A stretch of DNA of 64,000 nucleotides from a virus. The stretch lies in IMG/VR virus record IMGVR_UViG_3300033153_016035, positions 32,001 to 96,000 of that record. One strand, written 5' to 3'. The position numbers and the translations under genes were made by a program. Below the pieces are notes generated by a model. It did not search any database. It saw nothing but the letters and a program-made list of their open reading frames with translations, and was not told the origin of the DNA. Below, piece after piece: positions 30,801 through 49,267 of the stretch (the first letter of the stretch is position 1; every line of letters starts with the position of its first letter).

Positions 30801-31425
30801 GACGACTGTGTAGATAGGCTTCGACCAGAAGCTGGAACTGCCTACTTTCTGATATTGGAGATTCTATCGCCATTTCCCGTAGCCACGGAGGGGGTACCTG
30901 CACAAGTTTTTTACCCTCCCGGGCTATACGGGGAAGCTCTTCGACAACGACTCCTGGGTATACACCAATAGTTTTTGAACCCAAAGAGCCCCAGTACTGC
31001 GGCTCCTCTTCTATTTTAGTAAATGCCGCCTCTAATAAACCAAATACCTCCGGTGTGGGTTCTCGGTGCGCCGGGAAATTTAAGAACCAAAGACTCTCAT
31101 ATAGACTATCTTGTTCTACTACCCCTGCGAGGAACGGGTATGCGGATTGTCTTAGTAGGTCACGTTGCACCGCTTCACATGTCCAACTGTGCTCAGAGGT
31201 TATTATAGTCCCTTGAGACATAAAGTCTTCATATACTGCTGAGTAGGTCTCCACAACATCCGGGGCTTCTACCTCCCCTTGAAACCGAACTTGACATGAA
31301 GGACATTTAACCGGGTACCTGCCACTATATACCGGAATGGTTAGCCCACAAGAAGCGCATTTCACCTTAATTCGTCTGCTTTGGAGGACTCGTGCCATTC
31401 CTGGCGTAATTATAATCTTTTTCAA
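27886..31425 (-). CDS. Large putative head-internal protein with N-terminal Zn ribbon and hydrophobic segments
   Basis: CASC...CPSC; basic tract; two TM-like stretches. Likely TTG start at 31425 behind GGAGGG, overlapping the previous stop. Confidence 0.55.
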   Translation of the reverse strand: MKKIIITPGMARVLQSRRIKVKCASCGLTIPVYSGRYPVKCPSCQVRFQGEVEAPDVVETYSAVYEDFMSQGTIITSEHSWTCEAVQRDLLRQSAYPFLAGVVEQDSLYESLWFLNFPAHREPTPEVFGLLEAAFTKIEEEPQYWGSLGSKTIGVYPGVVVEELPRIAREGKKLVQVPPPWLREMAIESPISESRQFQLLVEAYLHSRPHCDHYEAGEYASNTLLLETVWSGKRPPSSVLNPRHRGGDPRIVVGGFRFTSKGINKARQHNKKVQHKILSRKNRGGVVSRIRSFRSMLQKKQSKAALVKAQRYHKTDPTAGRLHRELGRMHRSVGTFQTNDEGYSAIRHIRPEEAALRMFSNGTPYPSGTVRYFRIQGGLDENIFVGEVLPKSTQMEPEGGLYIRAGRRIEEIVISAFDMLLTEEQVEGLVRVAGRVVKKSCHPGIIIRVYNDVRNAVQLHEELFLSEKIKAHSIVNYTDTMVLLEADDAAAKKAMAIKQRYVELRKSRLEALKRQRAQLTTTSKEGMEAAKERIKQQIDKVKTDLTAREQRELERLKEGDITAGGPGKITTPKTIRGFGPEGEVVEIPAGTQANYNEEGGKQELLVLSGPDTGKTVMIDEPLDEAFLGLSLWGWSILMAKVGVIFSIGNVVLRWWRNRFAVFGGLTHEDEIFLRKFLVYQETEDFILGRDSANLAKNARKLTKFIRHAYADFNRLFDATGNVKHRPGLWLWKGEAYREVEVRRVVKTEMGTKTHIVRTSKDWEFWNWTYSRFFKLDLDTIILLLEELRGSIALNEKVPKELQEKLAQVYEEAEPIERQFAEDYWRNFALQADKTGHPIHGVFSSREYGLIIIMFKYPDFLDFLGEGTIGFFMPLVLSVGMTVYSIKKLGWAVSKIPAGLRGSLVWIKNYRESGKETIFIENKSQAAVAKTESSRKSILAGLKEHISSFFSNLWRYLTKNSIIYNMKDPYKFVLSWVDEPFVLGKAPIMCMKSRFKGSLLTSGDRVVIHALSKKESFGGKLSKDPLPEDIVTLEGSDFPGEAYAFLSEVFTAITHSPTFLELPQKEAQKRVMGIKEKNKFISRFVLKDRVVGRVPMLGRSKAKKIPMRPGDVYIIADYMGEKDYKAEGVLPMWRVVVTTKDYSGDVLVDVDTLYASLKNLREAVDTDVGLSKVMSLYQKL

Positions 31426-34400
31426 ACCGTAACCCTCCCACACGTCATAACTTTTGGGATATACTCGTATATGGCTTTACAGGGGGAGGCTCCGCCACAG
31501 ATGCCATGATACACGGTGATGTCTCCATTCTTTCTGAATATAAGATAATTTCCATCCTCACATAGCGCAGAAATTACATCCGTATTTTTAAAGAGAAATG
31601 GTACCTCAGACTCTCTGATGGTACTTAACTTCCTAGTTACCATAACCTCTATTGGCACAAACTCTAATATCTCCCCAACGTCTTGACATTCGTATATCAA
31701 TTTATCTGTATTAAATGTAGTATCTAGTAGCTGGTGAATTGCCTTTTGCTCCAGTACGTGTTCAAACCACGTACTGACATGCCCCAAGCGTGATTCAAAG
31801 GCCGCACTAACCGAACTACCTAAATCCACATTACAAGGAATAGCAACTACTGCACGTTGACTACCCGCTAAAACACAAGAGAAGGCGGCTCCAGAACGTA
31901 TTAGATTTTCCGTAGCTATAGCAAATCTACCCTTGTCAGGGGCTTTTTCAAATGTAAATTCTACCGTACAACTACCATTTACCACCTCAGCGGGAAAACA
32001 TGGTATTTCGTCTCGAACTTCTTGAAGAAACTCTTTTGTTGGGGAAAACGCAAATTCTATTTCCCCTTTAGACTCACACAAACGTATTACTCGTAAACCA
32101 GGATAATTGCGCGCTATAAAATTTGGTAGAGCCTCCTGGACGCTTTCTGTCTTCGACAACAGTCGCACCATGTCTGCTGCTTGTAGTTCCTGAACATCTG
32201 TTATAACCTGATGTCCGCGCATCAAATTACGAAGCTGCTGGGGTTTTTGGTCGTCAAGCATGTACCCGTCAACGCCCTGGGCTGTTTGGACAAAGCCATT
32301 TTTCGTTGTCATTTTCAGTGCCACATGGGCGCCGGTCTTTCCAGCACCGAACTGACCCTCCACTTCATCCTTAAATTTCTGTACGTCGTTTGTACTATAA
32401 AAGGCGCCGAATATGTGGAAAAGTGGCGAATGACATACAACTTGAATGGGTATAGGCTGCGCCTGGTCGCGGGCCCATTTGGGGACGTCTTTTCCACCAA
32501 CTAGATGTGGGTAGTCTTCCGGCGTAGGGCTATAACTAAAATGCAGAACTAACATAACCTCGGTAGTAAGTGGATTGTTATTGGCATCATCAAAATCAAA
32601 AAGTTCCACCTCGCAGTGGGCTGTAAACCACGGTGGAAGTGCTATAGGCGTTCTAGTTGGAACCTTATTGAAGGTGGTTAGTATAAGACCTCTATTTTTA
32701 GGGAAGGGCATTTTATTTCCAAAGAAGCGAGTTACCTGCTTTTTTACATAGCGGGTGAAATCTTGTATTATTCCAAACTTGTCTTCCCCCCAATGTATAC
32801 TCCCGCCAACTGCAGTGGCCACAGTTTTAAATATATCCTTAATATCGTCATCACCCGACAAGGCTTCCCACATAAAGCTATTTAGTTTTCTAGTAGACTC
32901 ATATTGTTGTTCCCATTCACCCGATATGTCACCCTCAACCACACCAATCTGCTCTTGCTGCTCTCTGGTAAGCTCGTGGAAACCCATCACAGAATCCCCA
33001 AACCCCAAACCTCGATAACTTTCCCCCATCTTTTCTATATTCTCACGTTCCCTTTCCGCGCCCTTGGCCTGACCGGACAAAGTCACCATCTCATCCCACC
33101 ACTTCTGTGATTCGGGAGCTAACTTTGGCAGCCCCGCCTCTACAATACTATAAGCTTCTGCGAGTATGTGTAGTTCTCCGTCGGTCATTGTGCCCAATAT
33201 ATCAGGATCTATCCTCTGCTTTTTCTCTAATTCTGCTATAAGCACTTTAGCTTCTGCATACTGCGTAGCCCGTAGTTTGACGTACGCCATCTCTTCCTTT
33301 TTTCGGGCCACCTCGGCTGGATTTTCAGTTACTTTCTGCAAAGTCCTTATGGGCTCAAAGACTTCTTCTACTTTAGCAGATACCTGGTCTAAAAACTGCT
33401 TAACAAAAGACTTTGGACCAATAACCCGGGGGGATACTTGGCCTGTAGCTAGATAGTTATTAACCAACTCAGAGGGGGAATCGACCACAAGAACTTTGCC
33501 AGCAAATACACTACCTTCCATTGTAAGCATTTTCTCAAAAGCTGCATCTTCGGAGCCAACCGGCTCCGCCACCTTATTTATACTGGGAACCGATAATGTT
33601 ATAGTATCCCCGCCGGCGCCCCCGTTAGCCATACTCTGGGCCATAAGATACGCGGCGGCAACGCCACCTAAATTATATATTAGTTTAAAATCATCTTTTC
33701 CTATAGTTTCTAGGGTTCCAAGTAGTGCGGGCATTGGTCCTCGACATTTAAACCGTCGGGGGGCACCTTGCACTACACCTAACTCCAAATCAAAATCGCA
33801 CTCTATCAACATTGGGTTAGCTGCCCCCTCTCCCACAAAACCCAAAACCCGCAGTTTAGTCTTGGTTGCCACTTTTGGTTTTATCAGGAGTGGCTTTTGT
33901 AGAGTCCAGTCAGACACCGATGTTATGAGCACACCGCCTTTAGGAACAACCCACATACCCAGATATTTTGAAACCCGGCGGATCATTGGAGCATAGTCCA
34001 CTACAGAGCGGTCAATTGGGGTTTTATACAAGTTAGGGTTATCTACCCCATAAAGTGCTTGTATCTCTTTGTCACCGAAAGCGCGGTCCAGTCTTTCTTC
34101 TAAACGTGAAGTTCCGGAACCCCTTATCCGTGCTATAATAAATGGTGTGGATTCCTTAAGGGTAGTCAGCACAGAAAAACCGTATATATCGCCGTCTATC
34201 TGACCACGTAGAAGGAGTGCTTCTACCAAGGAGCGAAAATATCGTGTTTCTTTTTCTGCTAGAAAACTCTTCGTGTCGACTGGCACGGGGAGCGTAAACA
34301 CTTTTTCGGTTACTATATTCCTGGGACTACCTACCCCGGGAATAAACCCTAAAGATGCAATGGTGGCCCGCAACCTGGTTAAAGCCGAGCCACAATTTTT

Positions 34401-34610
34401 GTAGATAATTTCATCCGTACTCTCGTACAGAACTTCATCGCCTTTAAAAGCCTCATGTATTTTACGGGAAATCTCCGTGGTTAGTCCCAGATCTTCAATC
34501 TTAACGGCAAGAGTTTTTCCCACACGGCCGGGGGTAAAGATACCATAACCGTACTTTTCATCCACTATGGTGGTAATGTCCTGATGGTTATCCCGTATAA
34601 ATTCTACCAT
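31422..34610 (-). CDS. Large hypothetical (putative head-internal) protein
   Basis: Open for more than 1000 aa; likely start ATG 34610 just after the previous TAA. Confidence 0.6.
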   Translation of the reverse strand: MVEFIRDNHQDITTIVDEKYGYGIFTPGRVGKTLAVKIEDLGLTTEISRKIHEAFKGDEVLYESTDEIIYKNCGSALTRLRATIASLGFIPGVGSPRNIVTEKVFTLPVPVDTKSFLAEKETRYFRSLVEALLLRGQIDGDIYGFSVLTTLKESTPFIIARIRGSGTSRLEERLDRAFGDKEIQALYGVDNPNLYKTPIDRSVVDYAPMIRRVSKYLGMWVVPKGGVLITSVSDWTLQKPLLIKPKVATKTKLRVLGFVGEGAANPMLIECDFDLELGVVQGAPRRFKCRGPMPALLGTLETIGKDDFKLIYNLGGVAAAYLMAQSMANGGAGGDTITLSVPSINKVAEPVGSEDAAFEKMLTMEGSVFAGKVLVVDSPSELVNNYLATGQVSPRVIGPKSFVKQFLDQVSAKVEEVFEPIRTLQKVTENPAEVARKKEEMAYVKLRATQYAEAKVLIAELEKKQRIDPDILGTMTDGELHILAEAYSIVEAGLPKLAPESQKWWDEMVTLSGQAKGAERERENIEKMGESYRGLGFGDSVMGFHELTREQQEQIGVVEGDISGEWEQQYESTRKLNSFMWEALSGDDDIKDIFKTVATAVGGSIHWGEDKFGIIQDFTRYVKKQVTRFFGNKMPFPKNRGLILTTFNKVPTRTPIALPPWFTAHCEVELFDFDDANNNPLTTEVMLVLHFSYSPTPEDYPHLVGGKDVPKWARDQAQPIPIQVVCHSPLFHIFGAFYSTNDVQKFKDEVEGQFGAGKTGAHVALKMTTKNGFVQTAQGVDGYMLDDQKPQQLRNLMRGHQVITDVQELQAADMVRLLSKTESVQEALPNFIARNYPGLRVIRLCESKGEIEFAFSPTKEFLQEVRDEIPCFPAEVVNGSCTVEFTFEKAPDKGRFAIATENLIRSGAAFSCVLAGSQRAVVAIPCNVDLGSSVSAAFESRLGHVSTWFEHVLEQKAIHQLLDTTFNTDKLIYECQDVGEILEFVPIEVMVTRKLSTIRESEVPFLFKNTDVISALCEDGNYLIFRKNGDITVYHGICGGASPCKAIYEYIPKVMTCGRVTV

Positions 34611-34611
34611 T

Positions 34612-35517
34612 TTATCCCCACAGTGCTCCGCCAGCCTTAAGTAATTGTACAAGTGTCTCTACTGCATAGTCCCACATGGTCCATAAAATCTCACCAATAA
34701 AAGGGATGTACACCGTTACCGATATTATTGTAGATATAAGAACCACGGTAGCCAGCCCATTAAAAATGGCGTCGAAGTCCTCTTTTGTCATCTCTTGATC
34801 TGTTCCCGCACGCAACACAACCGTTTCCGGGGGTACCCCCGCATGATCCTTTTGGACATGCCAAGCCCATATCTGGTCACCTATCCAACCAACGCCGTGA
34901 CGAAGCATGGGTAGATACATGCGCTGCCAAAACCATCTAAACATGCGCATGACCATACCTACTGGGTATGTGACCACGTCCCACACCCCCTCATCGAGTT
35001 TAGGGGAATACGATTCATCTTTCTTTTTAATCAACCGGCGGCGGACGTTCTCAACGTATTTCGGAATCTCTTTTGGGTTTTTAAACAAATGCTCCAAGGT
35101 TCCCTTAAACGTCGAGCTATTTCGGTCTATAAGGGATCTAAAAATCTTAATAAGGTTACGATAATAGTCCGTGTTTTCCATAAGGGGCGAGTCCGGGATA
35201 AGCTGGTCCCCAGACTTTAGACGATACCTGTCCTGAAGTGCCACGAACTGCATTTCCATTTCTTCACACAGCGGGTTTAGTGGAATAGACTCCTGGAGTA
35301 CCCAGAAAGCTTCCTCCAATACTTCCTTATCCCGCTCAAATGACTCTTCAATCTTACACCGATCTAATACCGCGTTTTTCTTTTGGGCATAGGCCACATC
35401 CAGTCTCTGAAAAGCGGCCGGTGCACTATTACTTTCCGCATGAACTCGGCTGATCTGGCGCTGCCTCCAGTTATCCAAGAGGGATAGTTCTTCATAATAA
35501 AGTGCTAAGTCTGTCAT
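34612..35517 (-). CDS. Hypothetical protein with C-terminal membrane segment
   Basis: ATGA-coupled start at 35517; LDEGVW followed by an amphipathic Trp-rich helix and a TM stretch. Confidence 0.6.
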   Translation of the reverse strand: MTDLALYYEELSLLDNWRQRQISRVHAESNSAPAAFQRLDVAYAQKKNAVLDRCKIEESFERDKEVLEEAFWVLQESIPLNPLCEEMEMQFVALQDRYRLKSGDQLIPDSPLMENTDYYRNLIKIFRSLIDRNSSTFKGTLEHLFKNPKEIPKYVENVRRRLIKKKDESYSPKLDEGVWDVVTYPVGMVMRMFRWFWQRMYLPMLRHGVGWIGDQIWAWHVQKDHAGVPPETVVLRAGTDQEMTKEDFDAIFNGLATVVLISTIISVTVYIPFIGEILWTMWDYAVETLVQLLKAGGALWG

Positions 35518-37214: not shown

Positions 37215-37748
37215 CTACCCTGTTAAAACAAAGTTGTCATTTGACCATAAAAGATTTTCCAAAACCTCAAAAGTGTCAGGATTTAACGCGTACAGCAGTT
37301 CCAATGTGGGAACGTAACCTCTTTTTAATAATCTTTCTGAAAATATTTCGTAGGGTTCTTGAACCCACGGAAACTTACCGTGTTTCTGTGCTCCGCGAAA
37401 TCTGCCAAGGATCTTCTGAAAATTTGGGGAGTTCTCCACTCCCATATGTGTTAAAAGATTTTCTATAGAAGAAAATGGGGGCAATGCTTGTGATCGGGAA
37501 CCTTCCAGTCTAACTTTGGTCCCCTTGGGCACCTCAATTGGGTACCACTCGTCCTCAGTGGGAACATAGTAATATAAGGTTAATGGCGCTTTTAAATACG
37601 CTAAAGAGCCGTATGATCCTATAATCTTTAGCGCCTGCCCACGTGATATAAGTTGAAGGGACTTATCCCCCCCAACCCTTTCTTCCAACACGAAGACTGT
37701 GTGGGCACCAGGTGGCATATATTCATCTGAAATTGTATTCAACCACAT
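37215..37748 (-). CDS. Hypothetical protein, first gene of the leftward block
   Basis: 177-aa ORF with AGGGG upstream. Confidence 0.55.
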   Translation of the reverse strand: MWLNTISDEYMPPGAHTVFVLEERVGGDKSLQLISRGQALKIIGSYGSLAYLKAPLTLYYYVPTEDEWYPIEVPKGTKVRLEGSRSQALPPFSSIENLLTHMGVENSPNFQKILGRFRGAQKHGKFPWVQEPYEIFSERLLKRGYVPTLELLYALNPDTFEVLENLLWSNDNFVLTG

Positions 37749-37769
37749 CCTACTTACCCCTTTATAACA

Positions 37770-37804
37770 CCTATATTGTTTAAGATGGGGGCTATATTTG
37801 TCAA
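37770..37804 (-). promoter_or_regulatory. Possible leftward promoter
   Basis: Perfect TTGACA (tgtcaa 37799-37804) but poor -10 (TAAACA/AACAAT). Confidence 0.3.
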
Positions 37805-37908
37805 GCTTATTATTACCAGCACGTTATGGTTATTTACATTTTTATAGCCGTTTGCACTTGATCTCATGGCACAAGGGGAGGTTTAATACACAATAAACTA
37901 ATTTATCA

Positions 37909-37937
37909 TTTACATAAAAAGGTAATGATGTTATAAT
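37909..37937 (+). promoter_or_regulatory. Sigma70-type promoter of the HTH gene
   Basis: TTTACA-17 nt-TATAAT with TGn extension. Confidence 0.7.
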
Positions 37938-37969
37938 GCCTTCAGGCCGTTGTGTGGAAGGAGAATGAA

Positions 37970-38206
37970 ATGTACGTTGATTTCAAGGAGGCCGCAAAAG
38001 TACTGGGAGTCCATTACAATACCATCAAACGATGGACGGATAAATTAAAAATCAAGACACCCTCTGCGCCTAAAAAACTAAAACACGTAACCCGTGAGGT
38101 AAAGATGGTGCCCTTTCGGGAGCTTGTAAGTAAACTTACAGATGCAAAAGTATTACCATTTAGTCAAGTAGAGTCTTCTAATAATATTCCGAGTACAAAG
38201 AAGTAA
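37970..38206 (+). CDS. Small helix-turn-helix DNA-binding protein (MerR/excisionase-like)
   Basis: FKEAAKVLGVHYNTIKRW; AAGGAG RBS. Confidence 0.75.
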   Translation: MYVDFKEAAKVLGVHYNTIKRWTDKLKIKTPSAPKKLKHVTREVKMVPFRELVSKLTDAKVLPFSQVESSNNIPSTKK

Positions 38207-38321
38207 ACAGTTTGTAAATTATTTAAAAAACTACCACTACAGTTAAAAATTCTACCCCCACAATGTCAACGAACTTCCCGCTGTAACCCCCGAATTTATT
38301 ACATTTTATTTAATTTTTCCC

Positions 38322-38350
38322 TTGCATTTCCCGCATTTTTGTGGTATAAT
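38322..38350 (+). promoter_or_regulatory. Strong sigma70-type promoter reading into the non-coding region
   Basis: TTGCAT-17 nt-TATAAT with TGn extension and AT-rich upstream tract. Confidence 0.8.
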
Positions 38351-38399
38351 ATAGGTAGAAAAGGGGAAAGTTCCCCTTCATCTTAGAGATGGATTTCAT

Positions 38400-39020
38400 C
38401 CATCTCCCTCCTAGATGTCCCGCACCTCCGAAAGAGCCGAGTGGGAAACTCAAGTGGGTTTCTTCGGTGGTTGTGGGTGAGACTTTTGTCGAAAGAGCTA
38501 GATGCCGCCCTTTAACGGGGCTACAGCTCATTAGAGGCATCAACCCGCACAAGTCGCGCATACATGCGCGGATCTGGAAGGACTCCCTGCCGTGGTTTAA
38601 ATGGCACAGGTGAGGGCTTCCAGGTATCACAGGCTTAAAACAATCAGGAAACTACCAACCACAAGCCACTTTCTGGTTGACCGCTGACCCAAGAGGAACA
38701 TTCTCCAGCGGTGCTAATCCCAGTCCATCGTGACTGGGTGTGTCCCCGAAAGGGGATTCTGACCGGGGCATTTCACCATGCCCCTTGACCCCACAGCTTC
38801 CTCCTAACACGAGGAGCGGGGAAAGGTCTATTTGCGAGAACCCCACGGAGTCATCTGTGGGCCGAAAAGGATATACGACGTTGACCCTTAGGGGTCGGGG
38901 ATTGGAGAGTCCCCTGTGAAGTCGTGAAGTGGTCGCGGGGCGCAACCGCCAGTTAACCCAACCCACACTTGGGGGCCGCTGGTTCTGAAAAGAGGTAAGG
39001 GACGTTTCGGGGGGAGATGG
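38400..39020 (+). ncRNA. Putative large structured ncRNA (~620 nt), family not recognised
   Basis: 5' CCATCTCCCTCCTAGATGTCCC pairs with 3' GGGACGTTTCGGGGGGAGATGG; further nested end-to-end helices and more than 10 internal hairpins; no RBS-supported ORF. Confidence 0.7.
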
Positions 39021-39042
39021 TATGAAAAAAATTGATAAGACA

Positions 39043-39261
39043 GGTGGTAGCGATTACTGCTCACCCCATAAATTCTAAAGACCTAAGCGTCCACTGCGGA
39101 CAAGCTGAAGAAAACAAAGGTAGCCACAGAGATGGCACCAGAAACGAGGTAAGCTTGAAAGTGTTGGCAGCCTGAGGAACTTACCCATCTAAAGTTTAAC
39201 CCCTGCTTGCAGGAAGAAGACTTTTAATGGGACTTGGGGTCGAGTGGTAATTACTACCGCC
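39043..39261 (+). ncRNA. Putative structured ncRNA (~220 nt)
   Basis: GGTGGTAGCGATTACTGCTCACCCCA pairs with TGGGGTCGAGTGGTAATTACTACCGCC (~25 bp) enclosing a multibranch core. Confidence 0.65.
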
Positions 39262-39270
39262 GACAAATAC

Positions 39271-39308
39271 ACCCTGCATGGCAATAAACCATGTGGGGTT
39301 TTTATTTT
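39271..39308 (+). terminator. Intrinsic terminator
   Basis: ACCCTGCATGG-CAATAAA-CCATGTGGGGT followed by TTTTATTTT. Confidence 0.7.
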
Positions 39309-39312
39309 AACA

Positions 39313-39427
39313 AAGACCGAGCCCGGTGGCCCGCACTTTTGTGCGGTCATGAATCCTTGCTTTCCCTTGTGGTGGCATAGCGAACCGGAAGTTAAATCTT
39401 CTGGGGTTCAACTCCCTGATTGGTCTT
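39313..39427 (+). ncRNA. tRNA-like element (T-loop, closing stem), not a canonical tRNA
   Basis: AAGACCGA/TTGGTCTT closing stem; GGGG-TTCAACT-CCCT T-arm; two internal hairpins. Confidence 0.45.
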
Positions 39428-39443
39428 CAAAATTCAACAAGTA

Positions 39444-39890
39444 GTAACGGGATAAGGGTAAACATCAACCTGTTACGTGACCGTGCCCCTGACGGCCTTA
39501 GTACCCTGGACCGGGTGAAAGCCCCAGATACTTACCGGTTTCTCATGGCCTTGAGACGTTATCAGGGTCGGCATTCCGACGGTGGCATAAAGAATGGGAA
39601 CTTCGCCACCCGCTGGTTGGGACTTAGATGTCCTTGGAAAAACTACAGGAAGTAATGTTCTTCGTAGCTGTCCTGGGCGTCCTAAAGGGTTTAACGGTTA
39701 CTTGCACCCAAGTTATCCCTCGCTTCGGCCTAAAAACATAAAATGTGCTCGCGGTATTGTGGGAGGCACGCTTACCTCAGATTGTTTAACGACGGTCGAC
39801 GGTGGGTAAGTTTAGGTTAGAGTCCTAAAATATCTGCACAACGCGGAATAACAAATCCGCAAGCTTGCCCCGAGGAAGCTAAAAAAATTA
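39444..39890 (+). ncRNA. Putative pseudoknot-rich structured RNA; boundaries uncertain
   Basis: Hairpin 39444-39476 whose loop AGGGTA can pair with TACCCT at 39502; GTCGG/CCGAC and GGTGGC/GCCACC hairpins with complementary loops; several more stems. Confidence 0.45.
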
Positions 39891-39908
39891 AATAACAACA
39901 ATTTTATA

Positions 39909-39962
39909 TGTCGGCGTTGGTAGAGTGGCTACTACGTAGGTTCAACCCCTAAAACGTCAACA
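39909..39962 (+). ncRNA. Mini tRNA-like element lacking an anticodon arm
   Basis: Acceptor-like stem TGTCGGCGTT/AACGTCAACA, D-arm GTAG-AGTGGCTA-CTAC, T-arm TAGG-TTCAACC-CCTA. Confidence 0.55.
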
Positions 39963-39971
39963 AAACTTTGT

Positions 39972-40125
39972 GGGGCTAAGGCCCCGGTCCAGTATAATCT
40001 GTGTTAGAAAAGAGTTGAAACTGGACATCGACTAACACAAACTGCTTACCCCATCGGGAAAAGCGAGGTGGGGAGTTCTAACGAACTAATCGCCGTCAAC
40101 TCCGGCGAGGAAGATGGGGAAGCGT
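39972..40125 (+). ncRNA. Putative structured RNA with pseudoknot
   Basis: GTCCAGT/ACTGGAC stem with loop TGTGTTAG pairing to CTAACACA at 40032; CCCCATC/GATGGGG multibranch. Confidence 0.45.
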
Positions 40126-40228
40126 CAAAATCTTTAAACGATCCTGGTAGGGTAAAACCTACCGGGGTCATCATCTATTCTATTTCGTAACTATCACAGG
40201 GGGCCTGAGTGCCCCCGAGGAGTTTAAA

Positions 40229-40501
40229 ATGAAGACTATAGTATTACAAAGAGTCCCCGATGGGTATCGGGGAGATTTGGACTGTCTAGCGGTGGTAACG
40301 CCGCATAAAGAAATTGGCTGCACCCATAGTGGGCACGGCCACGACTATAAAGTCCACATCGTCATCGACGAAACCGTCGCAGGGACGTTGTTCCGTGAAC
40401 ACGGGAATAATGGGGGTGGAAAACCTGCCTGTGATACCTTCTATCCAGCGGAAGGTTGGAAGGTTGAGTATGACGATTACGACGACGATGACGACGACTA
40501 A
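40229..40501 (+). CDS. Hypothetical protein with acidic tail
   Basis: GAGGAG RBS; ends in TAA at a hairpin element. Confidence 0.7.
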   Translation: MKTIVLQRVPDGYRGDLDCLAVVTPHKEIGCTHSGHGHDYKVHIVIDETVAGTLFREHGNNGGGKPACDTFYPAEGWKVEYDDYDDDDDD

Positions 40502-40594
40502 AATTAACCCCAGGTGGGCTAGAAGCCCACTTGGGATATCATCTATTCCATTTTTTAACTATTACAGGGGCCTGAGTGCCCCGAGGAGTTTAAA

Positions 40595-40888
40595 ATGAAA
40601 AAAGATAATAAAAAAAACCAACTCCTGCGCTCCTTCGCGCAGGCGGCCAATTTTCCCTTTGCCGAAGCACGAAAAAGAGCGTATTGGTGGGGAATCCCCC
40701 ACTACTTCTTGGGGGAAGAGCCAAACGGTTCCCGGTGGTGGGTAGAACTCGATTTTACAAAAAACGAGTACCGCATCGTCGTCTGGGAAGGGCGGGAGTG
40801 GACCAAAGCCGTAAGAACCGAAGGCTCGAAGTTGACCAAACGCCTGGTCCGCGTAACCAGGTGTCTAAGAGGCTGGAAACAAAAATAA
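40595..40888 (+). CDS. Hypothetical protein
   Basis: GAGGAG RBS; ends in TAA at a hairpin element. Confidence 0.7.
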   Translation: MKKDNKKNQLLRSFAQAANFPFAEARKRAYWWGIPHYFLGEEPNGSRWWVELDFTKNEYRIVVWEGREWTKAVRTEGSKLTKRLVRVTRCLRGWKQK

Positions 40889-40933
40889 ACCCAACCCCAG
40901 GTAGGCTAGAAACCTGCTTGGGGTATTATAAAA

Positions 40934-41290
40934 CGTGGGTGTTGGAAAGCATCTTTACAAGGTGCCCTCCACCGCCCACCCAGCCGGGCCGGATTAACCC
41001 CTATCCCGGTTACTAAACGGACTTTGCCTACAGTCCAACAACTAAAGTAGGCGCCTTGCCGAGGACGGTATAACTCCCTTTCGGGCCCACCTGATTAACG
41101 CCACCGTGCGAGGGGAACGGGTTCAACTCCCGTGGCAACACCAATATGTGGTTTCCAATGACCACGTTCATGACAGGACACTGTTGACGTACAACTGCCA
41201 TTTGGCGGCGGGCGTCGAGTGTCCGTTGCCCGCCAGCAGTGCCATTGCATGTTTAACTCTGGGAGTCGCGACCTTAGAGTTAAAACCCAA
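40934..41290 (+). ncRNA. Second block of putative structured RNA, with an H-type pseudoknot and a tRNA-like T-arm ending in CCA
   Basis: GGACT-TTGCCTAC-AGTCC with loop pairing GTAGGC (41019-41052); ACGGG-TTCAACT-CCCGT-GGCAACACCA (41117-41143); more hairpins; no RBS-supported ORF. Confidence 0.55.
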
Positions 41291-41296
41291 TTGGAG

Positions 41297-41348
41297 AAAA
41301 AGCCCGCAAACACACCCCAACCCTGGAGTGCGTTTGCGGGCTTTTTTT
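41297..41348 (+). terminator. Intrinsic terminator (possibly bidirectional)
   Basis: AAAAAGCCCGCAAACACAC...GTGCGTTTGCGGGCTTTTTTT. Confidence 0.8.
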
Positions 41349-41401
41349 ATTTCAAATTTTTACGTTTGTGGGGTAATTGCCTACAGGCGTAATTATATTT
41401 C

Positions 41402-41449
41402 AGCCCGCAATATCCTTTCTACGAGAGGGGATGTTGCGGGCTTTTTTTT
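41402..41449 (+). terminator. Intrinsic terminator
   Basis: AGCCCGCAATATCCTTTCT-ACG-AGAGGGGATGTTGCGGGCTTTTTTT. Confidence 0.8.
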
Positions 41450-41465
41450 AATTTAAGGAGAAATC

Positions 41466-41759
41466 ATGTCTCGAAACAAAAAAAATAATATGACCCAACC
41501 CCAACCCCAACCCCAACCCCAATTCACTCCCGCCACCCAAATGAACAGTCTCCCGGCACCAGCCGAGGAGATGGTAAGTAGGACCATCGGGGAGTTGATC
41601 CAGGAATCAGTCGAAAGGAACCTGGACTTTTCAGGGTGTATACGGCAGGCCGACAAAGAGCTTGACGTCTCGTACACCCCACCCAAAGATGAGGAGGGGT
41701 CGGTGAAAAAAAGGGAGTTTCAATTGAGGTTCCGCGACAACAAGAGAATCTCAGACTAG
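41466..41759 (+). CDS. Hypothetical protein with QP repeat
   Basis: TAAGGAG RBS. Confidence 0.65.
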   Translation: MSRNKKNNMTQPQPQPQPQFTPATQMNSLPAPAEEMVSRTIGELIQESVERNLDFSGCIRQADKELDVSYTPPKDEEGSVKKREFQLRFRDNKRISD

Positions 41760-41837
41760 CCTATTCCGGGGGTGGCTCCCCCGGCTCCTTACCATGTTTT
41801 TTTAAACCCTGTAACTTTTAAGAAAAGGAGGTCTACC

Positions 41838-42860
41838 ATGATTATCATGCAAGACCAAGTTCAGAATTTTCAGGATATAAACACGTTACATGAGCACGTA
41901 GAAGCTCAGGATGTCAGCGAAAGGATCGGAACGGTAAAGCTCCAAGATATGGAGCTATGGCCGAACTCCCTGCGAGTCAGGGATGAACACTACGCGTTGA
42001 CCCGGACAGGCGTCAACGACGCTCTATCCCTGGCACATTTCCCTCAGGGAGCCTTCATTAAGGTCGAAGAGGAGAAACAAGGCGATATCGACTTGGGGTT
42101 GTGTACATACACCAACTCCTTCTATAACCATGCCTCTTGCAAAAATAAGAGGCGCAAGATAATAACCCGCGCCACCACCGAAAACGAAAAGGAGGCGACT
42201 GGCCTTGAAAGGGCTGTCATCGGCATCCCGAGTGAGCAATACTATTTGTTTTCTCACGCCGAGGCGCTTGATAAAATCAAGGCCCCGGTTTCCACTCTCC
42301 AGGTAAAAAGGGCGCGGGTGACACCGCACTTAATGGAAATATGTGTGGTGGACGACCGCTTCAAAGCCCAAGCGGGCGCGGTTGGAGACATAGTAGAGAT
42401 TGGGGTTAAAATCCTCAACTCACAAACCCGAGCAAGGAAGCTCCAATTTGGAGCCTTCACATGGCGGCTTTGGTGTACAAATGGCTGCTCCGCAGCCAGC
42501 GAAGCGTTTTCGTTTGGATTTGTCCACCGGCAGGGAATAACGGCCATCAATGGCCAGATAGAGCCAGGCATTAGAGACCTAATTGAGAAGACGGAAGTCT
42601 TCACAAAGGGTCTTCCGCGTCTGGCAGAAATGCCTGCCGACGACAAGTTCATCCGGCGGATCGAGCCTCGGCTCGTCCAAGGGATGAAAACAGCACCGGC
42701 GCAACTGTACACCGAGGGTCTCCGGGAAAACCGGCAAAACCGGTTGGATGTTTGGAACTACGTCACCGAGTACGCACACAAACATACCGGGGGCGACGTC
42801 AACAAACAGCAAACCCTGGAGAACCTTGGGTTCTCCATCCTGGAGATGTCCATAAATTAA
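41838..42860 (+). CDS. DUF932-like phage protein
   Basis: ILNS......QFGAFTWRLWCTNG motif; AGGAGG RBS before ATG 41838. Confidence 0.65.
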   Translation: MIIMQDQVQNFQDINTLHEHVEAQDVSERIGTVKLQDMELWPNSLRVRDEHYALTRTGVNDALSLAHFPQGAFIKVEEEKQGDIDLGLCTYTNSFYNHASCKNKRRKIITRATTENEKEATGLERAVIGIPSEQYYLFSHAEALDKIKAPVSTLQVKRARVTPHLMEICVVDDRFKAQAGAVGDIVEIGVKILNSQTRARKLQFGAFTWRLWCTNGCSAASEAFSFGFVHRQGITAINGQIEPGIRDLIEKTEVFTKGLPRLAEMPADDKFIRRIEPRLVQGMKTAPAQLYTEGLRENRQNRLDVWNYVTEYAHKHTGGDVNKQQTLENLGFSILEMSIN

Positions 42861-42936
42861 CAACCCAGCCCCGACAGGATAAGCTCCTGTCGGGGTTTTT
42901 ATTTCCCCAAACACTAACTCTTTGAAAGGAGACTAT

Positions 42937-43302
42937 ATGGGAAATTTCTTTTACTGGTCCAATTCGGACCTGAAGAACTTAGAAGCGGCCGCACACCGCG
43001 ATGGGTACCGGCTGCCCACAAATTTTTACATGAGGCGGTCGGAAGTAACGGCGGACCTTTACCAACAGGAAGAGGTTCGTGATGAGGCGGTAAAGGCCGC
43101 CGCGACGGAGTGGCAGAAGCTCCGTAAGGGGATTGCCTGGGTCAAGCTCGATGGAGACGACCAGGAGGTCGGTCCCCGATCGGCTGACTTTTACAAGGAA
43201 GCCCTCCCCCAGCAGTTGTTTGACTTGCTGGGAAGTTTTGACCGGAAGGCCGCTTTGGTGGCGGCTATCGAGTTTATACGCACGTATAGACCCGCAGAAT
43301 AA
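42937..43302 (+). CDS. Hypothetical protein
   Basis: AAGGAG RBS before ATG 42937. Confidence 0.7.
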   Translation: MGNFFYWSNSDLKNLEAAAHRDGYRLPTNFYMRRSEVTADLYQQEEVRDEAVKAAATEWQKLRKGIAWVKLDGDDQEVGPRSADFYKEALPQQLFDLLGSFDRKAALVAAIEFIRTYRPAE

Positions 43303-43377
43303 ACTGTGTCTACAGGGGGCTAAATGCCTTCTGTAGACTTTATGCTTTTTATTACATTAACTTTTTAAGGAAATATT

Positions 43378-43569
43378 ATGAAAAAGTACGACCTTGTATG
43401 CCCCCATTGCCACGAACCGGAGGTGGTTCACCTCCCGGCACATGCGCCCAATGAGCCCCACTGTACGGAATGTGGGGAGGATGTGGATCTTGACGAGGTC
43501 CACACATTTATCAATGGGTGGACCGATTATCTGGCTGACAGAAAAGCGTTTTTGGAGGCAAAAAAATGA
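43378..43569 (+). CDS. Small Zn-ribbon protein
   Basis: CPHC...CTEC. Confidence 0.65.
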   Translation: MKKYDLVCPHCHEPEVVHLPAHAPNEPHCTECGEDVDLDEVHTFINGWTDYLADRKAFLEAKK

Positions 43570-44006
43570 ATCTGATTGAATTCTTCCGAGGAGACTACAC
43601 CCTAAAAGTGGAGGTTCTCCTGACGGACCCTGATAATAAAAGGGTCTGCCTGACTATCGTCCAAACTGCCCCTGACACAAGGAAGGCGTTGAGGACCAAT
43701 CAGTTCTACCTCAAACTGTCGGAGGCGCGGATACTGTTTCAGGACTTTTTGTCCTGTGAATTTTGGGTCGCCAACCGGCGATATCCAAAAAGACAGTTCC
43801 GGCGGATCCGAAAGTCCAGCCGGTACCGGGATGTCATTATCCAGCCTAAGGATAATGACCTTTCCTTATCTATTATAGATGGGGAGAAGGAAAATGTCCT
43901 TCGGTTTCAGTTGACCTCGTTTGAAGCCGCCGAGATGGCGGACACGGTTTTAGACTATCTGGACAAAAAGCGCCTCGCCTGGGCGATAAAGCAGGCGATA
44001 AAATAG
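43566..44006 (+). CDS. Hypothetical protein
   Basis: ATGA-coupled; GGAGG RBS. Confidence 0.65.
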   Translation: MNLIEFFRGDYTLKVEVLLTDPDNKRVCLTIVQTAPDTRKALRTNQFYLKLSEARILFQDFLSCEFWVANRRYPKRQFRRIRKSSRYRDVIIQPKDNDLSLSIIDGEKENVLRFQLTSFEAAEMADTVLDYLDKKRLAWAIKQAIK

Positions 44007-44099
44007 GGACTACCGGGGGACACAGTTCCCCGGTAGCCGTCATGGCCCGTAACATTTCTTTTCGGCGGCCTTTCGGTCGCTATTTAAAAAGGAGAATTT

Positions 44100-44789
44100 A
44101 TGTATATTCATTTTTCCGAACCGGGCAAAATGCCCTGCCATGCCTGGTCGCTTCCGACGGCAATGTGCCAATCGGGACAAAAGTACCGGTTACAGGGCGA
44201 CCTGACCGGTAAACCATTTGCCTGTCGTGTGTGTTATGCACACCTTGGGCCTACGTCCTGGAATAAAAACCAGGGATATTTAACAAAAAACTGGGAGGCG
44301 TATGCCGCAAATCCAGATGGCTGGGTGATAGAGATTGCCGACGCTATCTGGAATCGACTAAACGCCTTGTATTTCCGGTGGAACCACAGTGGCGATATCC
44401 AAAGTGCAATCCACTTAGGACACCTAGTCGGCGTGGCCGAGCTTTGCCCCAAAACTTTTTTCTGGCTACCAACGTCCGAATTTGCCTTCGTGTCTCGATA
44501 TCTCCGGGACGGTGGCGACATCCCCAAAAATTTATGTGTACGGGTATCGGCCCCACTCATAGACGGGAAACCCCGCATCTTGCGGAGGCCGCACCCCCAA
44601 GTGGCATACAGTAGAGTAGTCTACCATGAGGTAGATGAAACCTTGTGCCCTGCTCACAGACAGGAGGGGGTTTGCGGCAAATGCCGCAGATGTTGGGATA
44701 TTAACGAGAGACTAGTATCCTATCCACTTAAGGTGGGGTACACCTACTGGCCGTTACTAACAGCCAATAGGCTAGGTCTAATAAAATAA
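44100..44789 (+). CDS. Gp88-like Cys-rich protein (mycobacteriophage gene product 88 family)
   Basis: KMPCHAWSLP, C..CYA, YFRWNHSGD, FWLPT.E, P.NL.VR.S, CPA..Q...C..CR.CW. Confidence 0.8.
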   Translation: MYIHFSEPGKMPCHAWSLPTAMCQSGQKYRLQGDLTGKPFACRVCYAHLGPTSWNKNQGYLTKNWEAYAANPDGWVIEIADAIWNRLNALYFRWNHSGDIQSAIHLGHLVGVAELCPKTFFWLPTSEFAFVSRYLRDGGDIPKNLCVRVSAPLIDGKPRILRRPHPQVAYSRVVYHEVDETLCPAHRQEGVCGKCRRCWDINERLVSYPLKVGYTYWPLLTANRLGLIK

Positions 44790-44870
44790 AACCGGGCCGG
44801 GGAGGATAGAACCTCCTCGGTTCTTTATCTTTTACTTTTAATTTTACTTAACAAAGGAAAGGAGATTTGT

Positions 44871-45422
44871 ATGAAAGACAAATCTCATCTTACCACCACC
44901 TATGACGCCTACAACACCGCCCGGATCCTCGATGACTACGTCAATGGATCCGGCGGCTTCACCGAAGTTTTTGCTGAGAGTTTCAGCTTGGAAGAAGCGC
45001 GGGTTGTGTGTAAATTTTTCTACCACTCCCTCATCTACTATGGAGGAAAAGAGGTAGGCATTGACGGGCGGAACGAATACTACGTAGGGGTCTGCAAAAA
45101 AATCAGACCAAAACATCACGCCATGCAAGTGGCAGACTGCGCAACGTACAACGGGAACAAGGAAGAAATACCGTACCACCCTGAAGAGTACGCCGTGTCC
45201 AGATTTCTGGTACGGTGGTTGAAGACTGCTTCGATGTCTGAACAGAAGAAATTCTTTCACTTCTTCAGGGAGGACACGCACAACATGCTCCAGTCCTATT
45301 TTGTAGAACTGGCCATCAAAATGTGTCTTTACTGGCACGCTAGGCTCCCAGAACTAAAACCGCTAATAAAAAGTATTGTAGATGCAGGTCACTACATAAA
45401 TACCCGCGATTTACACTACTAA
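44871..45422 (+). CDS. Hypothetical protein
   Basis: AAGGAG RBS. Confidence 0.7.
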   Translation: MKDKSHLTTTYDAYNTARILDDYVNGSGGFTEVFAESFSLEEARVVCKFFYHSLIYYGGKEVGIDGRNEYYVGVCKKIRPKHHAMQVADCATYNGNKEEIPYHPEEYAVSRFLVRWLKTASMSEQKKFFHFFREDTHNMLQSYFVELAIKMCLYWHARLPELKPLIKSIVDAGHYINTRDLHY

Positions 45423-45494
45423 AAAGAACCCGGCGCTGGCCATAAACCGGCGTCGGGTATCATAACCTATTTCGTTTCTTTTTAGGAGAAATCC

Positions 45495-45743
45495 ATGAGA
45501 TGTACGAAAGAACAACTGGACCAATGGGTCCAGATACTAACCAAACTTGTCCCACCACCCAAATGGTGTCGGTGGGAATACCGAAATGAGTATGGTCATG
45601 GGATTTTCCCCGTAATCATAAAAAATGGTGCCGTTTACGCCAACAAGGTGCTCGGCGGGATGGTCCACAATACCAAACCAGAGTTACTGTCGCACATCAA
45701 GTTTACGGTTAGTGTTATTCAAGCCCTGAAGGGGGGAGAGTAA
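45495..45743 (+). CDS. Hypothetical protein
   Basis: AGGAG RBS. Confidence 0.65.
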   Translation: MRCTKEQLDQWVQILTKLVPPPKWCRWEYRNEYGHGIFPVIIKNGAVYANKVLGGMVHNTKPELLSHIKFTVSVIQALKGGE

Positions 45744-46018
45744 TGTATTTCAAATTTAAACTAAACGTAGTCCGGGAGGCCCTATCCTCTGAGACTATTA
45801 CCATCAATCTCCGGGGGCCTAAAGAGGCACCGGTATTTTCAAATGGACTTCTGTCCGAAATTCTTGAGGCCAGTGAGGTTGAGACCTCGGTTTCTGTGTC
45901 CTCCAAGGACATCAGAGATCTACTAAAAACGCATGGGCGGTACAAAAAGTATATGTACTGCTTGGTCCAGAAGGATTACCTTCTAGTGGGATTTTCCCCA
46001 CTCAAAAAAAGAAAATAA
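45743..46018 (+). CDS. Hypothetical protein
   Basis: TAATG coupling to the previous gene. Confidence 0.65.
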   Translation: MYFKFKLNVVREALSSETITINLRGPKEAPVFSNGLLSEILEASEVETSVSVSSKDIRDLLKTHGRYKKYMYCLVQKDYLLVGFSPLKKRK

Positions 46019-46090
46019 ACCTGAGCCTGGGTGGAGGTAGAACTTCCCCGGGCTATTATCTTTAATTTCATAACTTTTTAGGAGACTACT

Positions 46091-46600
46091 ATGGATTTTT
46101 TAAAGCTTATCAGAGAAGAAGAGTACCAGACAGTAGTGCGCCAACTGGCGCATGAAGACGGGATCGAAGTGGTCCTATCTATTCCCGGAGTATGGGAGCT
46201 GGTGGCGGAGTTTTATAACAACGCCGCCATTGAGTTGTGGCAGAAGGAACTCCCCTTTACGTGGGAGGAGGATGGTCACGAGGTGGTATTGGAACTCCTG
46301 GAGACGGGCACGAAAGTCGTGCTACGCCAGTCCGACCGCCCGTGGTCCAGCCCGGGGTTTTCCCGCCTGGAGTACGAAGTCTACCAAACGGGGTTTACCC
46401 CCATTTTTGAGAATGACGACTTCGCAGTTCCGACGGGGGCGGGTTTAACCCTCAGGTCGACTTTAAGCCTACTGCGCCACCTCACAGACCCACATAAGCT
46501 GGGTCGGGAATTTGACCTCAACCAGCTCGACTGGTTAGAGACTTATGGGGGGGAGATCGGAGGATTTGCTGCCGATTGGCGGCAAAGGCTCGACATATAA
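46091..46600 (+). CDS. Hypothetical protein
   Basis: AGGAG RBS. Confidence 0.7.
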   Translation: MDFLKLIREEEYQTVVRQLAHEDGIEVVLSIPGVWELVAEFYNNAAIELWQKELPFTWEEDGHEVVLELLETGTKVVLRQSDRPWSSPGFSRLEYEVYQTGFTPIFENDDFAVPTGAGLTLRSTLSLLRHLTDPHKLGREFDLNQLDWLETYGGEIGGFAADWRQRLDI

Positions 46601-46661
46601 AACTAAACCCGGGCGGGATGACTCCTGTCCGGGTTACTATTTCTATTTTAAGGAGAAAAAT

Positions 46662-46868
46662 ATGAGCTACAAACACCCCGAAGGGTGGATCAAGCGTGGG
46701 GAGAAACACCACTTTTTCGTGGACGGCGTCTCCCTGTGTCGCCATTTCTACCAATTCACGTACGATAACCCGTCCGAACACGACGGGCTGTACAACTTAA
46801 TGGACTGCGCCGAGTGCCAGTCCAAACACAAGCATTTAATCTCTGAAAGGAGATTTAAAAATGGATAA
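46662..46868 (+). CDS. Small His/Cys protein
   Basis: GW...KHHFFVDGVSLC...CAEC; TAAGGAG RBS. Confidence 0.65.
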   Translation: MSYKHPEGWIKRGEKHHFFVDGVSLCRHFYQFTYDNPSEHDGLYNLMDCAECQSKHKHLISERRFKNG

Positions 46869-47037
46869 AAACTGTGAGGACTGTGGTACCCCCATTATAC
46901 GAGGGGGGATGGTTGTCGTCGATGGCGCCGTGAAGGCTGGCGACGTTTTACTTTGCAGCGAATGCAAAAACAAACAAAAAATTCGTACGCATAACGCCCT
47001 CACCCATATGTACGGGCAGATGGCGATGGACGACTAA
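46861..47037 (+). CDS. Small Zn-finger protein (58 aa, below ORF-track cutoff)
   Basis: MDKNCEDCG...CSECKN...; AAGGAG RBS; ends at a hairpin element. Confidence 0.6.
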   Translation: MDKNCEDCGTPIIRGGMVVVDGAVKAGDVLLCSECKNKQKIRTHNALTHMYGQMAMDD

Positions 47038-47112
47038 ACTGTGCCCGGGTAAGGATAAAACCTTGCCTGGGTTTTATTTTTTTATTCCCTAGTTTACTTT
47101 AAGGAGACTTCT

Positions 47113-47421
47113 ATGGATAAAAACTACACCGACCCCAAAAAGTGTTGGCCCCCAAAAATGGACAAAGACCTCGATCTGATTTTTCGGATCGGGGACACGA
47201 TGTCAGACTTTTTGGGGAGGCACGGGGTGGCTGGCCAACTTGATGGCCCATACCAAGCGTGGGCACACCCCAATTACCACAGGGAGACCCCCGAGACAAT
47301 TAGGGGGGACAGCTCCATCGGAGATGGGGGGTTAAATGACAAAGTCCTTAGGTCAGCCACTGCATTTGTGGCGTACAGCTTGTCTATGACGAGTGCCCCG
47401 ACTGTCGAAGTATCTGTTTGA
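47113..47421 (+). CDS. Hypothetical protein
   Basis: TAAGGAG RBS. Confidence 0.55.
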   Translation: MDKNYTDPKKCWPPKMDKDLDLIFRIGDTMSDFLGRHGVAGQLDGPYQAWAHPNYHRETPETIRGDSSIGDGGLNDKVLRSATAFVAYSLSMTSAPTVEVSV

Positions 47422-47627
47422 CATGTTACGCGTGTGGTGGGGTATGGAAGCCCAAGACCCCGCCGGAAAGTCGGGAATGTCCAGAAACCTGCATCCACTG
47501 CGGGACTTCCTGCTGCCCTAATTGCGGTGGGGAGATATATCGCGTTGAGGAGAGGGATGGAGTAGAGGAGCAGTACAGAAAAGCGTGTTCATACTGCTCC
47601 TGGCGACACTGCGGGGGGTGCATTTAA
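47418..47627 (+). CDS. Small Cys-rich protein
   Basis: Several CxxC motifs; ends in TAA at a hairpin element; start uncertain. Confidence 0.5.
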   Translation: MTCYACGGVWKPKTPPESRECPETCIHCGTSCCPNCGGEIYRVEERDGVEEQYRKACSYCSWRHCGGCI

Positions 47628-47703
47628 AATAAGGCCAGAGGGGGTTGAAAGCCCCTCAGGTCATCATCTACTTCATAACTTTTTCAAGAAGAAAGGGTAT
47701 GCT

Positions 47704-47922
47704 ATGTATAGATCAACAAGCCAAGTTATCTGCAAAAACCGAAAAACAGGCGAAGAAAAAACATATAGCGGATTAGAACCATGTGATGCTCTGATCGTCA
47801 TTTACGCGCAGAGCATCGGAGACTTTAATTCGGCGCACTACGGTAAATACTGTGCATACATACGCCGGGACGGGGTTTACAAATATGAACTTGGGGACTG
47901 GTATGTTGCCACTCCAACCTAA
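47704..47922 (+). CDS. Hypothetical protein
   Basis: Follows a hairpin element; AAGGG RBS. Confidence 0.65.
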   Translation: MYRSTSQVICKNRKTGEEKTYSGLEPCDALIVIYAQSIGDFNSAHYGKYCAYIRRDGVYKYELGDWYVATPT

Positions 47923-47999
47923 ATAAAAACCAGATCTGAGGGGGCTTACCCCTCCTCAGGTCATCATCTACTTTATTTCTTTATTAAGGAGAATTCTAT

Positions 48000-48978: not shown

Positions 48979-48988
48979 GGAGCGACCT

Positions 48989-49258: not shown

Positions 49259-49267
49259 CAAACCTAT

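Follow-up and report, generated by a model that had tools for sequence, protein, structure and literature searches.

A candidate ~630-nt non-coding RNA clamped by a long terminal stem in a large uncultured myovirus

The stretch of DNA analyzed here (the window) is 64,000 nucleotides long and corresponds to bases 32001-96000 of the 119,917-bp IMG/VR virus record IMGVR_UViG_3300033153_016035; all coordinates below are window positions. Our preferred explanation of positions 38394-39027 of the plus strand, to which we give about an even chance of being right, is a non-coding RNA of ~630 nt that would form the first module of a ~950-nt transcription unit, with a many-armed core clamped by a ~59-bp stem, and that would be released by RNase III and act in trans. 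An initial annotation, made from the sequence alone, had proposed an ornate RNA of ~620 nt at this place. What stood of that proposal is a gene-free, strand-specific and strongly folding stretch of ~630 nt with a terminal rod. The idea of a stand-alone RNA did not stand, as the predicted RNA is a module of a ~950-nt unit that also holds a second module of 219 nt.

The terminal rod and the fold of the RNA

The strongest single feature of the RNA is its terminal rod. The five end-to-end pairings from which the initial annotation had drawn this rod are all present in the minimum free energy (MFE) fold, with pair probabilities of 0.66-1.00 in the rod, and the rod reaches slightly past the ends proposed there, through 38394-38399/39022-39027. 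The helices in between are these:

38400-38411/39009-39020, plus strand: rod helix, MFE fold
38413-38421/38999-39007, plus strand: rod helix, MFE fold
38424-38428/38992-38996, plus strand: rod helix, MFE fold
38433-38438/38981-38986 and 38440-38444/38976-38980, plus strand: rod helices, MFE fold
38449-38455/38967-38973 and 38456-38460/38955-38959, plus strand: rod helices, MFE fold
38466-38475/38941-38950, plus strand: rod helix, MFE fold

A duplex of the two rod segments (86 nt on the 5' side, 92 nt on the 3' side) gave -99.9 kcal/mol, against a mean of -32.3 kcal/mol (standard deviation 8.4) and a best value of -66.6 kcal/mol for 1,592 pairs of segments of the same length and spacing taken from both strands of the record. 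The basal 27 bp (38394-38421/38999-39027) carry one unpaired base per strand, and the two main segments of this base have pair probabilities of 0.99-1.00. If an rRNA-type processing stem is taken to be a long-range duplex of at least 20 bp that joins the 5' and 3' flanks, then the 27-bp base of the rod is such a duplex.

On the opposite strand, positions 38395-39025 gave -253.7 kcal/mol (z -6.4) versus -288.5 kcal/mol on the plus strand, and the rod was 27 kcal/mol weaker (-72.8 versus -99.9). At the DNA level, complementarity between the outer arms is only 79%. The strand asymmetry, the G-U pairs and this limited complementarity indicate an RNA rather than a DNA structure, and the modelled structure seems to have been selected as, or at least would work only as, a plus-strand RNA. 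The RNA is present once in the record, with no second copy, and is therefore not a repeat element. A miniature inverted-repeat transposable element or other inverted-repeat mobile element was ruled out given the single copy, the 79% complementarity of the arms as DNA and the dependence on G-U pairs.

The plus-strand MFE value for 38395-39025 corresponds to a z-score of -10.3 against 20 dinucleotide shuffles and of -8.4 against an independent set of 15. The fold holds 211 base pairs (121 G-C, 70 A-U and 20 G-U), with a mean pair probability of 0.85 and with 67% of the pairs above 0.9. The predicted core is made up of a domain of 396 nt, which the helix 38544-48/38935-39 closes, and of two smaller elements, a small hairpin and an arm of two nested helices (38501-38541). 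The domain holds ~11 hairpins and includes a 301-nt multiloop subdomain at 38627-38927. One core helix, 38641-50/38670-79, is uncertain (p 0.19). The seven hairpins picked out in the initial annotation recur without exception in the MFE fold (38554-71, 38572-625, 38680-712, 38719-38, 38742-57, 38765-84 and 38842-61). The pseudoknot it had suggested between GATGCC and GGCATC was instead a nested helix, 38501-06/38536-41 (p 0.75), drawn around a small hairpin. A boxA-like element, GCCCUUUAAC at 38507, was considered and dropped as probably due to chance.

The 19-nt apical loop at 38651-38669 is complementary to 37740-37755, the start-codon region of the mRNA of a divergent gene for a 177-aa protein, at 13 of 16 positions, 8 of them contiguous. 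A rough estimate placed this match within chance, and the pairing was not retained.

The RNA is modelled as the first and largest module of a unit of ~950 nt that runs from a promoter to an intrinsic terminator, with transcription probably starting at about 38357. The parts of this unit are as follows:

38322-38350, plus strand: promoter with TTGCAT, a 17-nt spacer ending in TGG (extended -10) and TATAAT, read from the sequence
38361-38378, plus strand: 5' leader hairpin AAGGGGA-AAGU-UCCCCUU, predicted fold
38394-38475, plus strand: 5' strand of the terminal rod (~59 bp, nine helical segments), predicted fold
38476-38940, plus strand: multi-branched core, predicted fold
38941-39027, plus strand: 3' strand of the terminal rod, predicted fold
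39043-39261, plus strand: second stem-closed RNA module of 219 nt with a closing stem of ~25 bp (39043-39068/39235-39261), predicted fold
39271-39309, plus strand: intrinsic terminator with an 11-bp stem and a 7-nt loop, followed by TTTTTATTTTA, terminator scan

A promoter scan had missed the promoter at 38322 because its -35 hexamer matches at only 3 of 6 positions. Its 15-mer core, TGTGGTATAATATAG, is unique in the window even when up to 3 mismatches are allowed. The whole unit of 959 nt (38352-39310) folded at -408.1 kcal/mol (z -11.4), and the terminator is also covered by a sub-threshold match to the terminator part of NsiR1.

Short direct repeats link the 3' strand of the rod with the second module, one pair at 38987-38999/39141-39153 (GAAAAGAGGTAAG and GAAACGAGGTAAG) and another at 38967-38983/39232-39248 (ACTTGGGGGCCGCTGGT and ACTTGGGGTCGAGTGGT). 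They may be the trace of a duplication.

Seven overlapping open reading frames (ORFs) of 53-106 aa had no PHROG match below E 0.01 (one reached 0.033), and an ATG with a ribosome-binding site is absent from the ORFs that overlap the RNA, bar one frame of 18 codons. A protein-coding reading was rejected on these two results. The 18-codon ATG frame (39022-39078, plus strand; MKKIDKTGGSDYCSPHKF) has GGAG 5 nt upstream and lies at the junction of the first and second modules, and the base of the rod buries both its start codon and its ribosome-binding site. No counterpart of it was found in G002, the related phage described below.

Known families and related phages

The initial annotation could not match the RNA to ROOL, GOLLD, OLE, RNase P, tmRNA or SRP by eye and had suggested an Infernal search with models of the large RNA families. 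Such a search came back without a hit to the families it named: across the whole window, none of the 4,227 families of Rfam 15 reached its gathering score. With relaxed filters and E <= 10, positions 37900-39700 gave five sub-threshold matches, all to small unrelated families; no large RNA, intron, RNase P, SRP or tmRNA family was among them. The ROOL model (RF03087; 574 positions, gathering score 99.1 bits) matched none of five records at E <= 1, although control genomes gave no match either, and it returned nothing in the all-family scans. The group II intron model group-II-D1D4-1 (RF01998) likewise matched none of five records at E <= 1, with the control matching in 3 of 14 genomes. GOLLD, OLE, HEARO, RNase P, SRP, 6S and the group I intron, all of which we take to be included in Rfam 15, gave no match in the all-family scans, those for GOLLD being the only searches made for that family.

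That the RNA lies in a phage was borne out by the virion and replication genes of the record. This gives the phage context of a ROOL-type setting; as for tRNA genes, ARAGORN found no tRNA or tmRNA gene either in the window or in the whole 119,917-bp record. A literature search, supplementary files aside, returned no description of the RNA, which cannot prove that none exists. Judged from these searches of its sequence, the RNA appears to belong to no catalogued family and to be new to the catalogues. It is a single example, with at most one doubtful second member in G002.

Relatives were sought through the major capsid protein, which found 89 proteins at E <= 0.001, with identities down to 43% for the clear ones, and reached 80 IMG/VR loci. 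Relatives with capsid proteins 72-90% identical occur only on metagenome contigs (74% for L121, on a contig of 137,813 bp, and 72% for L122, on one of 98,550 bp). Among the IMG/VR loci, the closest relative with a long contig is G002 (116,166 bp), whose major capsid protein is 64% identical. The gene order of G002 matches that of the window, with a homolog of the 327-aa neighbor protein (31% identical by genome search, 29% by tblastn), a gene for a small helix-turn-helix (HTH) protein (24% identical, pairwise E 1e-4), a promoter, ~850 nt, a terminator and a T-arm-like motif, GGGTTGGATTCCCC, ~220 nt past the terminator. At the syntenic place, the promoter of G002 has TGTGGTATAATATAG unchanged and again preceded by TTGCA-N13. 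The ~850 nt behind this promoter hold no convincing gene; their predicted fold (-275.0 kcal/mol, z -8.4) is closed at its ends by a helix, and the region had no Rfam match. A MAFFT alignment placed two islands, ACAATCA.G.AACT and CAG.GGTGCTAA, at an equal 66-nt spacing in both RNAs. A conserved promoter followed by unrelated content fits two pictures, namely very fast divergence of the RNA or exchange of cassettes within a conserved slot.

Wider searches added no further candidate. A blastn search in distant mode with 38300-39600 found no match in 50,697 phage records, and 38300-40150 compared by blastn with 24 related viral records gave matches of 15-28 nt only, the three inspected being high-GC coding sequence. 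In IMG/VR, the promoter pattern returned 17 stretches (the record of the window not being among them); judged by eye, the stretch of G002 was the only one not followed by a short leader or by a ribosome-binding site and an ORF. A pattern of promoter plus start returned 18 with the same outcome. The two-island pattern was found in G002 and four other stretches, all four inside ORFs, and a three-motif pattern in G002 and seven others, of which four overlap ORFs of at least 90 aa and none shows the wider motif context. Used as an anchor, the 327-aa neighbor had no relative in IMG/VR, and the 177-aa neighbor had two, on contigs of 1,041 and 1,535 bp. The downstream GP88-family protein was discarded as an anchor, being too widespread. 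In G013 and G014, the slot beside the homolog of the 327-aa protein is not kept.

The phage genome around the RNA

The gene content of the record points to a large uncultured myovirus with a T4-like portal and capsid. Genes for a Gp23-like major capsid protein, a prohead protease, a tape-measure protein and a tail sheath of 995 aa lie in the window; the remainder of the record encodes a T4-like portal and a helicase, together with a family A DNA polymerase and a RecA/UvsX-like protein. CheckV estimates the record to be 55% complete. Both of its ends consist of phage genes, and host genes were seen at neither. A C-5 cytosine DNA methyltransferase and an N6/N4 DNA methylase are also encoded (window 54697-55929, minus strand, and record 103089-104462, minus strand).

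Genes on the minus strand reach 37748, and a plus-strand block then extends over ~37950-49300. The RNA region stands at the head of this block, the only one on the plus strand, just past the minus-strand virion block and ~21 kb away from the capsid gene. Directly upstream of the RNA, in the syntenic context described above, are two features:

37909-37937, plus strand: sigma-70-like promoter of the HTH gene, promoter scan
37952-38206, plus strand: gene for a small HTH protein of 84 aa

The 84-aa protein matches Pfam HTH_17 at E 9.9e-5 with 23 bits, under the 27-bit cut-off. No iterons or notable direct repeats were found in 37700-40300. The virion block adjoining the slot contains very large ORFs of 1,886, 1,185 and 1,076 aa at 21105-34652 (minus strand); the 1,185-aa and 1,076-aa ORFs had no Pfam match, in a scan that left out the 1,886-aa ORF.

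The plus-strand block downstream is rich in hairpins. Between 39300 and 49400 there are 37 terminator-like sites where 13.4 +/- 3.3 would be expected, and ~9 strong hairpins of 12-19 bp with T-rich tails are placed after small genes in the block. No sigma-70-like promoter above 9/12 matches was found on the plus strand of 39300-49400. In windows of 300 nt, the mean residual z-score of 40100-48700 was -1.7. The block resembles the arrays of PeSL (promoter-stem-loop) cassettes reported from T4-type phages.

T-arm-like motifs of the form GGTTCAAC[T/C]CC occur at 39405, 39939 and 41120 on the plus strand, up to 1.7 kb downstream of the RNA, and these three are the only matches to GGTTCRANNCC in the 64 kb. 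Neither ARAGORN nor the Rfam tRNA model (39280-41500, E <= 5) recognized a tRNA at them. The third, at 41120, lies inside an acceptor/T-arm minihelix ending in ACCA. The T-arm-like motif of G002 lies at about 3340 of locus L091.

Proposed processing, rival explanations and known systems

Under the preferred reading of a released, trans-acting RNA, the extended -10 promoter of host type at 38322-38350 would drive the unit up to the terminator at 39271-39309, and the interrupted stem of ~59 bp would pair both ends of the RNA and hold its core shut. Leader-trailer helices of bacterial rRNA precursors are RNase III sites. By analogy with them, the RNase III of the host, which is specific for double strands, would cut the near-perfect basal 27 bp; we infer this processing because the 27-bp clamp and the presence of a second stem-closed module resemble rRNA precursors. 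Cutting would free a compact and presumably nuclease-resistant RNA, which could then act in trans, as a structural scaffold or a decoy, early in infection. A bolder version of the same reading, possible and yet rather unlikely in our judgment, sees in the RNA the first example of a new class of large phage RNA. On this view the unit would be a mini stable-RNA operon (promoter, stem-clamped RNAs of 630 nt and 219 nt, terminator and tRNA-like punctuation), whose place, promoter, size and end closure are kept from one related phage to another while the sequence becomes unrecognizable, and whose RNA-only architecture, possibly an oligomer, would serve early infection.

Several results weigh against these readings. 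The overall z-score of the RNA is not special in this genome, because neighboring plus-strand windows score as high: seven windows of 631 nt in 40200-48000 gave z-scores of -4.9 to -12.0, as compared with -2.9 to +1.0 for nine such windows in the minus-strand virion block. This high-scoring block includes real genes, such as that of the GP88-family protein, and in windows of 300 nt the RNA itself is unremarkable (z -0.6 to -2.2). The G002 region contains putative ORFs of 99 and 112 aa, blastn against it finds nothing beyond the promoter except chance-level matches, and the best ungapped identity over 90 nt is 43, a value matched by 61 of 200 shuffles. A covariance model (R1) of the 301-nt subdomain at 38627-38927, made by supplying the one sequence two times, reached 9.2 bits at best in G002, on the closing stem only (five G002/G003 loci, 55,193 bases, filters off), and was found in none of 44 related viral records. 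The equal spacing of the two islands is the sole hint of homology; 2 of 300 shuffles reach it, by a statistic chosen post hoc. Since a high z-score is not specific, the case rests on the rod, the strand asymmetry, the lack of a coding signal and the promoter and terminator.

A serious rival, of fairly low probability, is a leader acting in cis, with the RNA modifying the polymerase or the transcript for read-through of the terminator at 39271-39309 and of ~10 terminator-like hairpins downstream. Processive antitermination of this sort is exemplified by the put RNAs of phage HK022 and by the leader elements of rRNA operons. The gene layout would suit it: the only strong plus-strand promoters of host type, at 37909 and 38322, stand just upstream of the RNA, and the downstream block is rich in terminator-like hairpins and has no promoter above 9/12 matches. 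In rRNA operons, the leader-trailer helix and the antitermination complex are reported to act together (PMC10250234). The phage may, however, use promoters of its own type that a sigma-70 scan would not see, the T-rich motifs after the hairpins being candidates, and Rfam reported no boxA-like or put-like match. Moreover, the antitermination RNAs known to us are tens of nucleotides long, not 630. Less probable again is that a conserved promoter-terminator slot carries exchangeable cargo in the manner of PeSLs, the insert perhaps being selfish or recently acquired and without a role for the phage. A promoter nearly identical to that of G002, between flanking proteins only 24-31% identical and ahead of transcribed sequence that cannot be aligned, would be explained by such exchange, as would a neighboring block built as an array of small genes punctuated by hairpins. 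Yet both inserts are similar in size, fold far better than their shuffles and are closed end to end, which would be unexpected if they were unrelated, and the two equally spaced islands hint at common descent. No second copy of the RNA turned up either, whether by blastn in 50,697 phage records, by the covariance model in 44 viral records or by the IMG/VR motif patterns.

The comparable z-scores of 40200-48000 raise the question of whether there is a discrete functional RNA at all. The region could be a spacer that accumulated stable hairpins, with the rod as an old inverted duplication, and we consider this improbable: the rod lies 33 kcal/mol past the best of the 1,592 controls and relies on G-U pairs that work on the plus strand only, the hairpins of the RNA have 5-10 bp and 3-19-nt loops versus 12-19 bp with T-rich tails in the array, and the unit has a promoter and a terminator of its own. 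Very improbable, in our view, is a primer for a replication origin, in which a persistent RNA-DNA hybrid at the divergent intergenic region would prime the family A DNA polymerase, as do ColE1 RNA II and the R-loops at T4 oriF/oriG. A non-coding transcript with its own promoter at the junction of divergent blocks, in a phage with genes for both a RecA/UvsX-like protein and a family A polymerase, is what that proposal would call for, but 37700-40300 is free of iterons and notable direct repeats, a strong terminator and the second stem-closed module come after the RNA, and we know of no primer RNA with an end-to-end clamp. We rank lowest of all the idea that the RNA belongs to a known large family (ROOL, GOLLD, OLE, group I or group II introns, RNase P or tmRNA) but has diverged so far that the models missed it. 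Its size, near the 574 positions of the ROOL model, and its location in a phage would agree with this; the lack of a match to those families even at E <= 10 with relaxed filters, the absence of ROOL and group-II-D1D4-1 from all five records searched with each and the zero count of tRNA and tmRNA genes by ARAGORN speak against it.

Only a handful of very large structured RNAs are known from bacteria and phages. ROOL and GOLLD build RNA-only cages, and an unrelated phage RNA of 630 nt, with a clear promoter and terminator and a probable processing stem, would be a compact new structural object. By analogy, it would fall in the same broad class as those two phage RNAs, and it could be used to ask whether large phages generally deploy such RNAs early in infection. 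If RNAs of this kind keep their place, promoter and size yet lose sequence similarity, surveys based on sequence would systematically miss them.

Phages and prophages are reported to carry ROOL, in many cases close to tRNA islands, and ROOL to form RNA-only nanocages (10.1101/2024.12.08.627333). The RNA described here resembles it in being encoded by a phage, in its size (~570-630 nt), in its many-armed predicted fold and in having no evident protein partner. It differs in giving no match to the ROOL model and in lying in a record with no tRNA genes and only three T-arm-like motifs, and its fold is predicted from one sequence. GOLLD has a conserved 3' region and a variable 5' region, with tRNAs sometimes in the linker, according to the same report (10.1101/2024.12.08.627333). 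Both would be large two-part phage RNAs, with a 630-nt module followed by one of 219 nt in our case; however, no Rfam hit links them, and the searches made showed no relation in sequence or fold.

The likeness to rRNA precursors lies in the long-range helix that joins the flanks of a large structured RNA, as leader-trailer helices are reported to do (PMC10250234), and in the placing of two stem-closed RNAs between a single promoter and terminator, with tRNA-like elements after them. In contrast, the element described here has no similarity to rRNA, belongs to a phage and is ~630 nt long versus 1.5-2.9 kb, and its cleavage is proposed by analogy. PeSL cassettes of promoter and stem-loop are reported to shuffle variable content in T4-type phages (PMC2839356, PMC4122927). 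The slot, where two related phages share a conserved promoter but not the content that follows it, in a region of small variable genes punctuated by hairpins, recalls these cassettes, a likeness drawn from their description rather than from a shared motif; PeSLs, as there described, flank small protein genes, whereas the slot considered here would hold a large non-coding RNA.

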